33,906 nucleotides of DNA from Singulisphaera sp. GP187 (lineage in GTDB: Bacteria; Planctomycetota; Phycisphaerae; Phycisphaerales; SM1A02): the NCBI GenBank assembly GCA_945896765.1, contig CAMDEL010000001.1:1-33906 (forward strand), read 5' to 3'. The notes beneath the pieces are model-generated. The model did no database searches, was not told the DNA's origin, and saw only the letters and a list, made by a program, of their open reading frames with translations. Below are positions 4,523 through 28,040 of the stretch, one piece after another (the stretch's first letter is position 1; every line of letters begins with the position of its first letter). The translations under genes were made by a program, and so were the position numbers.

Positions 4523-4942
4523 ATGAAACTACTTCCATCACGAGTCAAGTACCGCAAGCAACAGCGCGGCAAGATGAAGGGCTGCGCAACACGCGGCAAC
4601 TATGTCGCCTTCGGAGATTATGGATTGCAATCACTGGAAACAGTGTGGCTGAGCGGTCGTCAAATCGATGCAGGCCGTATTGCAGCTCAGCATTTCCTTC
4701 GTCGCCAAGGCAAACTCTATATTCGAGTTTTCCCAGAGAAGCCGATTTCGAAGAAGCCTTTGGAAACCCGAATGGGTACTGGAAAAGCTGAAGTCGAATA
4801 TTGGGCAGCATGCGTGAAGCCTGGAACAATTCTCTTCGAAGTCGAAGGTGTTCCAGAAGATTTGGCGAAGCAAGCTTTGGCGCGTGTGGCGCACAAGATG
4901 CCGATTCGCTGCAGAATGGTTGCCCGTCGTTTGGCAGTATAA
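4523..4942 (+). CDS. rplP: 50S ribosomal protein L16 (uL16)
   Basis: 139 aa with RMGTGKAEVEYWAACVKPGTILFE. Confidence 0.97.
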   Translation: MKLLPSRVKYRKQQRGKMKGCATRGNYVAFGDYGLQSLETVWLSGRQIDAGRIAAQHFLRRQGKLYIRVFPEKPISKKPLETRMGTGKAEVEYWAACVKPGTILFEVEGVPEDLAKQALARVAHKMPIRCRMVARRLAV

Positions 4943-25833: not shown

Positions 25834-26355
25834 TCAGGAATGAGCGGGGGATCGTCGTTGCGATCTGGAGGTTCGTGGATCACCGGCAGAACCTTGCGAG
25901 AGAGATTGCAATCGACGTGCGACTGATTTCGCTGCGCTGTTTGTTGTGCATGCGATGAAGATGCAGTCATCACCTGCAATTGTTCCAATGACTCCCAGTA
26001 ATTTCGCACGATCGATTTCGACAGCAAGCGCACTGGCTTGACCAGGCGGCGTGTGCACGACCGCTTGCGTGCCGCCGATGGCAACTTCAAGCAGGAGTCT
26101 GCGAACCGTAGCAGTGAGTGATGAAATTCGGTCAACGGGGAGAGTTTCGCTTCCCGATGCAAGCATTGCAGAAAGAACTTGATATCCCGCAGCGGACTTC
26201 ACGACGCCAATTTCCGTGAGGTCGCGCGAGAGCGTTGTTTGGGTTGTATCGATACCGACGCGCGACAATTGTTGCGCGAGATCGAACTGACTGGAGATTC
26301 GTCCCGATTCAATCAGCTTGATGATTTGGCGGTGACGTTGAGCTTTGGCGACCAT
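25834..26355 (-). CDS. argR: Arginine repressor
   Basis: 173 aa. Winged-helix N-terminus (RHRQIIKLIESGRISSQFDLAQQL, TQTTLSRDL) and a GTIAGDDCIFI oligomerisation/arginine motif. Confidence 0.92.
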   Translation of the reverse strand: MVAKAQRHRQIIKLIESGRISSQFDLAQQLSRVGIDTTQTTLSRDLTEIGVVKSAAGYQVLSAMLASGSETLPVDRISSLTATVRRLLLEVAIGGTQAVVHTPPGQASALAVEIDRAKLLGVIGTIAGDDCIFIACTTNSAAKSVARRLQSLSQGSAGDPRTSRSQRRSPAHS

Positions 26356-26357
26356 GG

Positions 26358-26392
26358 CGCATTATTATGCAGTCAGATGAATAATAAGTCAA
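26358..26392 (-). promoter_or_regulatory. argR promoter (TTGACT, 17 nt, CATAAT) overlapped by two ARG-box-like operators
   Basis: On the minus strand: -35 TTGACT at 26392-26387 and -10 CATAAT at 26369-26364, with the ATG 8 nt downstream. TGACTTATTATTCA (26391-26378) matches TGAATWWWWATTCA at 13/14. TGCATAATAATGCG (26371-26358) matches at 11/14. Starts are 20 bp apart. Confidence 0.55.
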
Positions 26393-26447
26393 GTCGATTC
26401 TGAAGAAATTTTTGGCGGTTCGATGGTGGGGAGTTCGCGCAACTTTT

Positions 26448-26519
26448 ACAGCCACGGAAACAGCCGCGGAAACAGCCGCGGAAACAGCCACGAATACAGC
26501 CACGAATACAGCCACAGAA
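26448..26519. repeat. 12-bp tandem repeat ACAGCCRCGRAW x6
   Basis: Six contiguous units counted directly. Confidence 0.95.
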
Positions 26520-26685
26520 ATGCATAAGTGTTCAGCCGTGAAAAGTCCTCTCGGGGCTCAGACAGTCCTCGGCGACCGACACGATCCGGTTTGTGAAATT
26601 TTATTGCAAGTGACGTCGGCCGCCTGCGGAACTCGCCCGAGAGAACTTTCCAGCGGCTGGATACGCAAACAGATGTGAGACGGAA
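26520..26685 (-). repeat. Copy A of a ~166-bp repeat containing a 127-nt imperfect palindrome (26533-26659); candidate structured RNA on the minus strand
   Basis: Near-identical to copy B at an offset of exactly 196 bp. Nested stems paired by hand. Confidence 0.85.
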
Positions 26686-26715
26686 ACAGACACAGACACA
26701 GACACAGCCACGGAA
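26686..26715. repeat. ACAGAC x3 followed by one ACAGCCACGGAA unit, linking copies A and B
   Basis: Read directly. Confidence 0.9.
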
Positions 26716-26881
26716 ATGCATAAGTGTTCAGCCGTGAAAAGTCCTCTCGGGGCTCAGACAGTCCTCGGCGACCGACACGATCCGATTTGTGAAATTTTAT
26801 TGCAAGCGCCGTCGGCCGCCTGCGGAACTCGCCCGAGAGAACTTTCCAACGGCTGGATACGCAAACGAATGTGCGACGGAA
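26716..26881 (-). repeat. Copy B of the ~166-bp repeat (palindrome core 26729-26855)
   Basis: Same as copy A. The few substitutions fall in the bulge and loop. Confidence 0.85.
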
Positions 26882-26957
26882 TCTGAAAAACGTTCGAGCG
26901 AGAATTTGATTCGCCAACGTGGGCAGCGGAATGATTTGAACCTCGGCGAGTTTGCAA

Positions 26958-26982
26958 GCCGAGCAAGTCTGCGCAGCTCGGC
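26958..26982. other. Perfect 7-bp inverted repeat GCCGAGC, 11 nt, GCTCGGC
   Basis: Read directly. No U-tract follows on either strand. Confidence 0.4.
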
Positions 26983-26989
26983 GCAGCAT

Positions 26990-27188
26990 GTTTGAGCCCG
27001 GGGGCAAATCAGTCCGCTGCCAAAATCTGCACGAACCACTTTTGAGTCCATGCATGTTTGAGCCCGGGGGCGAATCAGTCCGCTGCCAAAATCTGTACGA
27101 ACCACTTTTGAGTCCATGCATGTTTGAGCCCGGGGGCAAATCAGTCTGCTGCCAAAAATCTGCACGAACCATATTCGAGCCCATCCGC
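26990..27188. repeat. 66-bp tandem repeat x3 (third copy degenerate at its end) immediately 3' of rsmA
   Basis: Units start at 26990, 27056 and 27122. Each has CCCGGG, and CATGCATG spans the first two junctions. Confidence 0.95.
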
Positions 27189-27194
27189 CAAAAT

Positions 27195-28040
27195 TCAGCG
27201 CGCATGCATCAATTGAACAACTTGCTCTGGTGCAAGTTCTTCCGGCCGCATCGTTGGTTCGATACCCGTGGGCCATGTTCCGCTGCGACCGAGTATCGCT
27301 CCGAGTTGTTTGCGCCGCTTGTTAAAAAGTGTTTGCATGAATGCGCTGAGTGCAGCGACATCGAATGTCGGAGGTTGTTCAAGTTGTTCAATCGCAATCA
27401 TGGAACTCGTCACTTCGGGCGATGGCCAAAAACATGATGGTGGAAGTTCGGCAAAAATTTCGGTGCGACTGAGCAAATGCGAAAGGATCGAAAGAGGTCC
27501 GTACTCACCACATCGTGGCGAGGCGATCAATCGCTGCGCAACTTCGCGTTGGATGGTTGCATATTGTCCGATGCAATCGCGCCGCGTTGTCATGAGCAGA
27601 ATGATCAATGGAGTCGCAGCTTGATAAGGCAGATTCGCCACAAGTTTGAAGGACTTTCCCCCAAAGCGGCGATCGATTTCCGCCATCAATTCAGCGGAAA
27701 GTTTGTGCTTTCCATCGAGGCAATCCGCAACAATCAGCGAGACTTGTTCTGGAGCGCGAGCAATCACCCGATCTGTCAGAATCGCCGCCATATCTCGATC
27801 GATTTCGCATGCAACAATGTTTGCGCCGACTTCCACAAGTGCTTCGGTCAGTGCGCCAGTACCAGGGCCGACTTCAAGCACGCAATCACCATGCTTCACG
27901 CCAGCGCGCGCGATGATCCGGCGAATCTGATTGTGATCATGCAGAAAGTTTTGGCCGAATCGATGCCTTGGATGAATGCCTCGAACATCCAGCATCGCGC
28001 GAATTTCACTGAGCGTCTGCACGATGTCGCTTAAAACCAC
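27195..28040 (-). CDS. rsmA: 16S rRNA (adenine1518/1519-N6)-dimethyltransferase
   Basis: 281 aa with RFGQNFLHD, VLEVGPGTGALT and ANLPYQ motifs. Confidence 0.95.
   Translation of the reverse strand: MVLSDIVQTLSEIRAMLDVRGIHPRHRFGQNFLHDHNQIRRIIARAGVKHGDCVLEVGPGTGALTEALVEVGANIVACEIDRDMAAILTDRVIARAPEQVSLIVADCLDGKHKLSAELMAEIDRRFGGKSFKLVANLPYQAATPLIILLMTTRRDCIGQYATIQREVAQRLIASPRCGEYGPLSILSHLLSRTEIFAELPPSCFWPSPEVTSSMIAIEQLEQPPTFDVAALSAFMQTLFNKRRKQLGAILGRSGTWPTGIEPTMRPEELAPEQVVQLMHAR

Follow-up and report, generated by a model that had tools for sequence, protein, structure and literature searches.

The two imperfect palindromes of 127 nt that lie in the spacer between rsmA and argR of the planctomycete contig CAMDEL010000001.1 (assembly GCA_945896765.1, Singulisphaera sp. 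GP187) are members of a high-copy, modular family of intergenic hairpin repeats in an uncultured freshwater clade of Planctomycetota. The whole stretch of DNA analysed, positions 1 to 33,906 of the contig, is referred to here as the window. A reading made from the letters of the window alone (the sequence-only reading) had regarded the palindromes as a candidate undescribed structured RNA of this locus or as an element like a miniature inverted-repeat transposable element (MITE). A structured RNA specific to the rsmA-argR locus is excluded, by a condition for refutation that this reading had itself set, because copies of the element, at least 274 of them, are dispersed among unrelated contexts; in addition, the array in the window lies upstream of the argR promoter. 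We infer that the element acts at the DNA level, as a folded single strand in the sense of the window's minus strand and not as a transcript, because its orientation follows replication-associated base composition rather than the direction of neighbouring genes. In our best explanation, to which we assign a probability of roughly 0.55, the palindromes represent a hairpin element similar to repetitive extragenic palindromic (REP) sequences and REPINs, acting as single-stranded DNA with a presumed enzyme partner.

The repeat family and its arrays

Two tools agreed on a tandem duplication with a period of 196 nt in the window (26481-26676 and 26677-26872). The palindromes it contains, at 26533-26659 and 26729-26855, differ at just 4 of 127 positions (26589, 26611, 26613 and 26653), and these differences are confined to the loop, the loop-proximal bases and the bulge. 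The sequence-only reading had given the coordinates, the spacing, the near-identity and the placing of the substitutions correctly, and the stems it named are present. As it had also stated, there is no credible open reading frame (ORF): no frame is open across all copies of the family. An ORF on the opposite strand starting from a conserved ATGCAT was considered and rejected, since it stops after 2-6 codons in about half of the ATG-bearing copies. Nor can the duplication be put down to faulty assembly: neither the sequence nor the repeat array is the same in the two copies, and arrays of 2-3 units recur in many independent assemblies.

Employing an exact 21-mer from the right arm of the palindrome as the query, we retrieved at least 106 stretches of genome contigs, which were the source of 119 full-length copies. 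An independent search with a 24-mer from the left arm returned at least 120 metagenome contigs and 155 further full-length copies, which brings the total to at least 274. Family statistics given below refer to copies and loci among the matches listed for the 21-mer (genomes) and the 24-mer (metagenomes), and the contigs or stretches compared with the window are labelled L001-L102. Almost all of the listed 21-mer matches fall in six freshwater Planctomycetota metagenome-assembled genomes (MAGs), and the 119 genome copies are 80-98% identical to the window copy. The right-arm 21-mer is exact in only 95 of the 155 metagenome copies; hence the genome sample is biased, and the true size of the family is greater still. 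The core motifs A and B (see below) form 294 pairs in the 1.64 Mb around the copies.

The repeated unit exceeds the palindrome (P). A 22-nt 5' flank (GTCGC...TTGCGTGCC) and a 16-nt 3' flank (CnCACTTATGCATTTC) are found beside almost every copy, those in the window included, and are able to lengthen the rod by pairing of TGCGTR with YTATGCA throughout the family. After the 3' flank come 12-nt repeats in variable number, with the sequence CGTGGCTGTATC or variants of it; arrays are usually headed by a module of ~110 nt (A module), sometimes also by 66-nt tandem repeats. The layout of a full array is [66-nt repeats]-[A module]-([5' flank]-P-[3' flank]-[12-nt repeats]n)n. Every base of 26448-27183 in the window matches dispersed repeat modules present in 27-105 other loci, and the whole stretch is a mosaic of the following features:

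26533-26659, minus strand: argR-proximal palindrome P, a rod-like hairpin of arm subtype 1 (fold; one of the 119 aligned members)
26729-26855, minus strand: rsmA-proximal palindrome P, 127 nt (4 differences in 127; fold of -64.1 kcal/mol)
26622-26637, minus strand: core motif A, GGCGAGTTCCGCAGGC, of the argR-proximal palindrome, read from the sequence; second copy at 26818-26833
26555-26575, minus strand: core motif B, TCGCCGAGGACTGTCTGAGCC, of the argR-proximal palindrome, identical with the 21-mer query; second copy at 26751-26771
26660-26681, minus strand: 5' flank of the argR-proximal P, GTCTCACATCTGTTTGCGTATC, conserved before nearly all copies; pairing of its TGCGTA with the 3'-flank TATGCA could lengthen the rod
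26517-26532, minus strand: 3' flank of the argR-proximal P, AACACTTATGCATTTC, conserved in the family
26448-26516, minus strand: 12-nt tandem array TGGCTGT[AT]T[TC]CG, ~6 units, after the argR-proximal P; a similar array follows most copies
26682-26728, minus strand: 3' flank (26713-26728) and short degenerate array (26682-26712) after the rsmA-proximal P
26856-26877, minus strand: 5' flank of the rsmA-proximal P, GTCGCACATTCGTTTGCGTATC, conserved
26878-26985, minus strand: A module, ending in ...GCGAATCAAATTCTCGCTCGAACGTTTTTCAGATTCC, which usually heads the array; in 35-45 other loci, upstream of many copies
26986-27183, minus strand: three tandem 66-nt repeats, a dispersed unit found in 29-34 other loci

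The arms of the palindrome are 93-94% identical among copies, and the apical 30 nt only 67-70%. Two arm subtypes (70 and 35 copies) differ at four left-arm and five right-arm positions; both keep the full rod, with subtype 2 shifted by one register, and chimeric copies with unmatched arms occur. In some arrays, the left half of the palindrome (up to ...CCGCAGGC) is fused to another module with its own hairpin, GAAATGGGCAAC...GTTGCCCATTTC (L002 347-500, L007 146-300, L009 1-85 and others). To judge from their sequences, the modules appear to have recombined at short motifs that they share. The 3' part of the 66-nt repeat is an inverted repeat of a part of the A module (26922-26947 and 26996-27021; 26 nt, 81% complementary), and the region holds a second, distinct long-hairpin repeat, formed by the 66-nt repeat and the A module together. 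The GGCTG in each 12-nt unit is also the final five bases of the palindrome. The length of the 12-nt array differs among near-identical strains: L001 has 3 units, the window 6 and L002 7. In L007, some nine units of 13 nt, GGATCGATTCCGT, take its place.

Arrays of the family are concentrated at the 3' ends of genes. Classified by their flanking genes (n=99), 62 are convergent, 25 co-directional and 12 divergent, compared with 139 convergent pairs among the 848 other adjacent gene pairs at the same loci (odds ratio 8.5, p = 1e-21). Species whose flanking genes share only 73-98% identity carry copies at the same, orthologous intergenic sites. The content of these sites has turned over: subtype 2 stands in one MAG where subtype 1 stands at the orthologous site of another, and distant orthologous sites do not share their loops. 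One MAG has subtype 1 only, and 17 of its 24 copies carry G-C at a position where G·U is usual. The family is subject to concerted evolution within genomes at long-lived sites.

The genes on either side of the array in the window, rsmA (27195-28040) and argR (25834-26355), are both on the minus strand, as the sequence-only reading had it, and both were confirmed by Pfam. The two-unit array occupies the spacer downstream of rsmA as far as the argR promoter, and only the final 92 nt ahead of argR are unique sequence. This unique stretch contains, directly before argR, the sole promoter-like site of the region, TTGACT-17-CATAAT (26392-26364). Since the array lies upstream of this promoter, the palindromes are not part of the argR leader. 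No promoter-like site was seen upstream of the window copies, terminator-like sites (hairpin plus U tract) numbered 0 on both strands of 26200-27400, and scans of the window for tRNA and tmRNA returned none. The promoter-like site (minus strand, 26364-26392) is near consensus and ends only ~8 nt before the start codon, a distance which suggests that the argR mRNA may be leaderless or nearly so. It overlaps an inverted repeat, TTATTATTCA ... TGCATAATAA, which we take to resemble an ARG box; if so, argR would be autoregulated.

Contigs encoding an identical ArgR vary in this region. They carry one copy of the palindrome, or a half copy followed by another hairpin module and one copy, and the number of 12-nt repeats also differs. 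L001 and L002 have infC-thrS-nrdR upstream of the array and L003 has another gene, against rsmA in the window; several of these contigs terminate inside the repeats. Because the upstream gene differs between contigs with identical ArgR, the arrays may mediate rearrangements, or the rsmA-argR junction of the window may be a chimeric assembly join. In the related MAGs represented by L032 and L060, rsmA is followed by its own array beside a convergent gene.

Strand asymmetry and replication polarity

The three non-Watson-Crick stem positions of the window palindromes (26541/26650, 26547/26644 and 26575/26620) are all A·C on the plus strand and hence G·U on the minus strand, an asymmetry to which the sequence-only reading had drawn attention. 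Using RNA parameters, with z scores relative to 200 shuffles, we obtained -62.0 kcal/mol (z -5.5) for the minus strand and -50.7 kcal/mol (z -2.6) for the plus strand of the copy at 26533-26659, and -64.1 kcal/mol (z -5.8) and -51.8 kcal/mol (z -3.3), respectively, for the copy at 26729-26855. None of the 200 shuffles was as stable as the minus-strand fold of the window copies. The ranking was rechecked with DNA parameters and remained the same (minus -29.9 and -31.5 kcal/mol versus plus -25.0 and -26.6 kcal/mol).

The asymmetry extends to the whole family. The better fold is on the strand of window-minus sense in 119 of 119 genome copies (mean -64.4 versus -53.2 kcal/mol) and in 129 of 131 distinct metagenome copies, and the consensus of each arm subtype contains three or four G·U pairs and zero A·C. 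The sequence-only reading had taken the wobble pairs to indicate transcription of the minus strand. That part of its argument was not borne out: between co-directional genes, the foldable strand is sense in 13 cases and antisense in 12, and its orientation tracks GC skew.

Copies on one contig are strongly co-oriented. Adjacent tandem copies are direct in 28/28 pairs of the genome set, all 45/45 same-contig pairs of the metagenome set are co-oriented, and so are 10/11 distant clusters sharing a contig; all neighbouring pairs together give 83/84. In the genome set, GC skew is 0.018 for genes on the foldable strand and 0.082 for genes on the other strand (p = 3e-18), and the metagenome set replicated the difference (0.017 versus 0.075, p = 3e-20). 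After correction for coding sequence, the skew in the orientation of the element is negative at 58 of 73 loci (p = 4e-7) and at 59 of 77 metagenome loci; at these loci the better-folding strand is the C-rich strand. Gene orientation does not account for the link with skew, because coding density is equal on both strands at the family loci.

The plus strand of the window is G-rich and bears the S5-L15-SecY-RpoA-L17 operons; it is therefore presumed to be the leading strand. The foldable strand, being the C-rich one, is presumably the leading-strand template. Over positions 1-28000, the GC skew of the plus strand is about +0.05 nearly throughout, even where all genes are on the minus strand. The minus-strand genes in this G-rich region include argR-argC-argB-argF-argG-argH-argJ, rsmA and the gene for RNase Y. 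Since the arginine genes are on the minus strand while the skew of the plus strand is positive, this long operon appears to be transcribed head-on to replication.

We read the orientation bias as survivorship; such a polarity would follow if hairpins on the lagging-strand template were a liability. SbcCD cleaves hairpins on the lagging-strand template (PMC3315005), and in chromosomal or sedentary integrons the foldable strand of attC is mainly on the leading-strand template (PMC8946536).

A core motif in several phyla

At the heart of the hairpin, between two helices, lies an asymmetric internal loop formed by a two-strand core of 16 + 21 nt, GGCGAGUUCCGCAGGC / UCGCCGAGGACUGUCUGAGCC. The two strands of the core, A (GGCGAGTTCCGCAGGC) and B (TCGCCGAGGACTGTCTGAGCC), are not complementary to each other. 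Outside the main clade, the core was found in two Betaproteobacteria (L040, L083), in a MAG classified as 'Proteobacteria' (L081, with two copies, and L100), in a Polyangiales MAG (L063), in a low-GC contig binned as Clostridia (L013) and in a second planctomycete lineage (L025). In each of these, A and B are on the same strand. Strand B is the 21-mer search query, and most cross-phylum copies were thus selected on it; strand A, on which they were not selected, is 16/16 in eight non-planctomycete copies. In L081b, a copy found by proximity only, strand B agrees at 20 of 21 positions. The few 21-mer matches outside Planctomycetota are not due to chance.

The helix outside the core (P1) is entirely different in each lineage, yet complementary over 9-30 bp. 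Among 34 distinct versions, each of the first 12 positions of P1 shows several Watson-Crick pair types; summed over them, 337 pairs are Watson-Crick, 37 G·U, 19 A·C and 15 of other kinds. Between two betaproteobacterial orthologues, the helix formed by the flanks shows a compensatory change from U-A to C-G and a change from C-G to U·G. A U·G pair beside GGGC is common to four proteobacterial or myxobacterial copies whose stems are otherwise different. Three copies are circularly permuted, so that B comes first, then a short closed hairpin, then A, with the second helix supplied by the flanks. Both CCGA and CTGA are present in the core, the latter falling exactly at the 5' foot of the closed hairpin in the permuted copies. 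At the level of sequence comparison, the core was shown to be invariant over at least three phyla, while its predicted helices change fully but stay complementary. Within the planctomycete copies there is little classical double-sided covariation, since their stems hardly vary and subtype 2 is one register off.

Strand B also occurs exactly in two Polyangia contigs (L036 1-130 and L102 120-300) and in a contig of Phycisphaerales (L051 4340-4520). Strand A is diverged (GATCCGCAGGCC) in the former and absent in the latter, and these loci may represent decayed copies or yet another form of the core.

No known RNA family was recognised by the sequence-only reading, and Rfam 15 likewise had no match at the gathering threshold for the window or the cross-phylum loci; permissive settings returned only sub-threshold matches of a generic long-hairpin kind (microRNA precursors). 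The reading's proposal of an undescribed structured element thus stands in so far as the core is absent from Rfam 15 and its helices covary across phyla, and falls in so far as the element was tied to one locus. Neither core pattern, A or B, was found in viral contigs, and the matches in plasmids, all within GC-rich coding sequence, were attributable to chance. When the 127-nt core was compared by blastn with all 5,426 complete E. coli genomes, nothing matched at E<=1. In full-text literature, the core sequences matched only unrelated primers, and the supplement of PMC6006769 contained no sequence matching the core.

Some candidate interpretations of the core were tried and rejected. A cis-regulatory leader in the other phyla does not fit, as the neighbouring genes are unrelated (enoyl-CoA hydratase, sulfatase, PilZ, inositol monophosphatase). 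A likeness to the hairpin ribozyme, based on an opposite-strand 9-mer (GACAGUCCU) shared with its substrate, was dropped because the required partner strand is absent. A likeness of subtype 1 (CGAGAGGAC) to the sarcin-ricin loop lies within the variable stem and was taken as coincidence.

Mechanism, rival explanations and known systems

In the mechanism that we favour, the element would function as a folded single strand of window-minus sense. Copies whose stable hairpin is on the lagging-strand template would extrude it at each replication and be lost through excision, hairpin cleavage or slippage, leaving the leading-template copies as survivors. Arrays would expand and contract by duplication of units and slippage of the 12-mers, copies would be homogenised within a genome, and sites at gene 3' ends would persist because they do no harm there. 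More speculatively, the invariant core could be the recognition and cleavage site of a trans-acting enzyme for single-stranded DNA. The most plausible candidate would be a Y1 HUH endonuclease of the REP-associated type, possibly of 'class 3', and such an enzyme may have amplified the element in this lineage.

Several points weigh against this explanation. Regular expressions for HUH Y1 motifs (RAYT and class 3 types) found none in the 1.64 Mb around the copies; there, the class 3 motif NHVH...YVxxEQ was not found near any copy, and no other transposase was seen beyond a small IS3-like remnant. IS200/IS605-type elements are expected to have their active strand on the lagging-strand template, the opposite of the polarity of this family. 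Empty orthologous sites, by which the ends of the element and a target duplication would be defined, were not encountered, every recovered orthologue having at least one copy. Private stem variants comprise 12 G·U-type and 14 A·C-type events, so ongoing selection for the wobble strand is not visible at the level of rare variants, which show no G·U excess. Functional RNAs, small ribozymes among them, typically show the same features as this core: unpaired bases that do not vary, circular permutation and the conservation of U·G pairs. On the technical side, gene calls at the family loci are crude ORF calls, many family loci are orthologous to each other so that counts are not fully independent, and the leading/lagging assignment comes from the usual GC-skew rule and one ribosomal-protein operon.

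The IS3-type remnant (~20 codons, SRKIYGSPRVSAELSSDGA) occurs at L072 ~30-90 and L092 ~4760-4830, two loci of one MAG, and abuts the A module at the same junction in both. The ORFs between distant copies are unrelated genes, with no autonomous insertion sequence of the same termini among them.

As for the core itself, which occurs in both circular permutations and in Planctomycetota, Proteobacteria and Myxococcota, we tentatively entertain the idea, at odds well short of even, that it is an undescribed catalytic or structural nucleic-acid motif, either a small self-cleaving ribozyme class or a site for an enzyme of single-stranded DNA. If so, one planctomycete clade would have amplified the motif into hundreds of copies oriented with replication.

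An alternative that we consider rather doubtful is that the core is a functional RNA module (a small ribozyme or a protein-binding motif) carried on a repeat and transcribed in 3' untranslated regions, where it would shape mRNA ends or stability. A two-strand core invariant across phyla between covarying helices, P1 and P2, would suit such a module. So would circular permutation, as in the hammerhead and twister ribozymes, and the U·G beside GGGC kept in four copies with different stems. The consensus non-Watson-Crick pairs are all G·U on one strand, although G·T pairs also stabilise DNA hairpins. Location at gene 3' ends, mostly convergent, makes read-through transcription likely, and the REP literature takes such a position as evidence of transcription (PMC3733652). 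However, a transcribed module does not predict orientation along a replication-type skew, and the foldable strand is antisense (12) about as often as sense (13) between co-directional genes. Upstream of the window copies there is no promoter-like site, no terminator is present, and Rfam gave no similarity to a known ribozyme or RNA family even at E<=10.

We regard it as improbable that the family is an ordinary MITE, whose arms would be terminal inverted repeats bound in double-stranded form by a DDE transposase encoded elsewhere, with the hairpin and the G·U pairs as by-products. In its favour, the elements are non-coding palindromes that lie between genes in high copy number and have roughly the length of ERIC or Correia elements; private stem mutations have no strand preference, and a remnant of an IS3-type transposase lies in the mosaic regions. 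The sequence-only reading was right, then, to the extent that it saw a MITE-like, dispersed, non-coding palindromic repeat, but no transposase was found nearby and no target-site duplication was visible at the palindrome ends of ~120 copies, whose true ends are blurred by the flanking modules. In the comparison of phyla, moreover, it is the outermost stem that varies and the asymmetric core inside it that is fixed, whereas termini bound by a transposase would show the reverse. The core strands are not mutually complementary, and circular permutation would be meaningless in terminal repeats. Copies in tandem are always direct and are oriented relative to strand skew, and orthologous sites have been occupied since before the species diverged.

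A locus-specific regulatory RNA, leader or terminator for rsmA or argR can practically be discarded: minus is the coding strand of both neighbours and its fold is very stable, but hundreds of copies stand beside unrelated genes, the only promoter-like site (26392-26364) is downstream of the array, directly before argR, there is no hairpin-plus-U-tract terminator, and in contigs with the identical ArgR the array holds 1 or 1.5 copies and the upstream gene is another one.

The family occurs in an ecologically common uncultured freshwater lineage, and no description of it was found in Rfam 15 or in the open-access full-text literature searched. Metagenome contigs break at these arrays, and the elements either drive rearrangements or produce chimeric joins in MAGs. 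The replicated orientation bias amounts to a natural test of how replication polarity affects the survival of hairpin-forming DNA; to our knowledge, this effect has been documented mainly for engineered palindromes and integron attC sites. A cross-phylum core with covarying helices and permutation is characteristic of a motif that a conserved machine recognises, and it offers a handle for finding that machine by phyletic co-occurrence. Replication-strand polarity together with a permutable cross-phylum core exceeds ordinary REP or MITE biology.

Among known systems, ERIC and Correia elements are imperfect palindromes of ~127 nt, intergenic and often transcribed. The present family resembles them in size and in intergenic position, but shows no sequence similarity (E. 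coli blastn), and no TA target duplication is visible at its palindrome ends. Conversely, ERIC and Correia elements lack the modular arrays, the cross-phylum core and the strand-skew orientation, all of which are present in the family.

Integron attC sites are likewise imperfect palindromes; each acts as one folded DNA strand, with the same leading-template polarity in sedentary chromosomal arrays. Their base is formed by R''/L''...L'/R' boxes with GTTRRRY, whereas the family ends in CAGCCGYTGG...CACGGCTG and has no GTTRRRY box; its conserved part is inside the rod and not at the base. Cassettes and an integrase accompany attC; the family has neither, and its neighbours are housekeeping genes.

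Class 3 TnpA-Y1 enzymes are found mainly in Planctomycetes, Acidobacteria and Proteobacteria and are flanked by hairpins with a CnGA at the 5' foot (PMC6006769, Quentin et al. 2018). There are ~600 copies of such hairpins in one genome, and their structures were called weak (PMC6006769). The host phyla overlap with those of the core, and the CnGA foot may be compared with the CTGA at the 5' foot of the permuted copies. Against the weak class 3 hairpins stand the very stable rods of the family, and the likeness, compared by description only, is a lead.

The most extensive similarities are with REP, REPIN and BIME (bacterial interspersed mosaic element) sequences, whose features were taken from PMC3116915, PMC3333891 and PMC3733652. 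REPINs are hairpins with conserved arms and a variable spacer that occur in tandem clusters (PMC3116915). The family likewise consists of high-copy extragenic hairpins with two conserved arms, a variable spacer, compensated changes in the arms and tandem clusters. It shares the mosaic association with other motifs, the location at gene 3' ends or between convergent genes, the genome-specific variants among paralogues, and the occupation of the same sites with different content in related species. It differs in that REP units are palindromes of 20-40 nt, two of which in inverted order make up a REPIN, whereas the arms of the family are not internally palindromic and do not form a REP doublet. 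REP units carry an unpaired GTAG/CGTC tag at the foot; the family has no such tag, its only CGTC being on the opposite strand and within the paired inner stem. REP clusters alternate, whereas tandem copies of the family are all direct in the pairs examined, and the variable-number 12-nt array of each unit has no REP counterpart. REP sequences are species-specific, in contrast to a 16 + 21-nt core that is identical across phyla, and REPINs are served by RAYT (REP-associated tyrosine transposase, TnpA-REP), a Y1 HUH enzyme of which no example was found in the 1.64 Mb around the family copies. At variance with REP in the defining sequence features, which it lacks, the family is nevertheless REP-like in its copy number, position, clusters, arms and concerted evolution.

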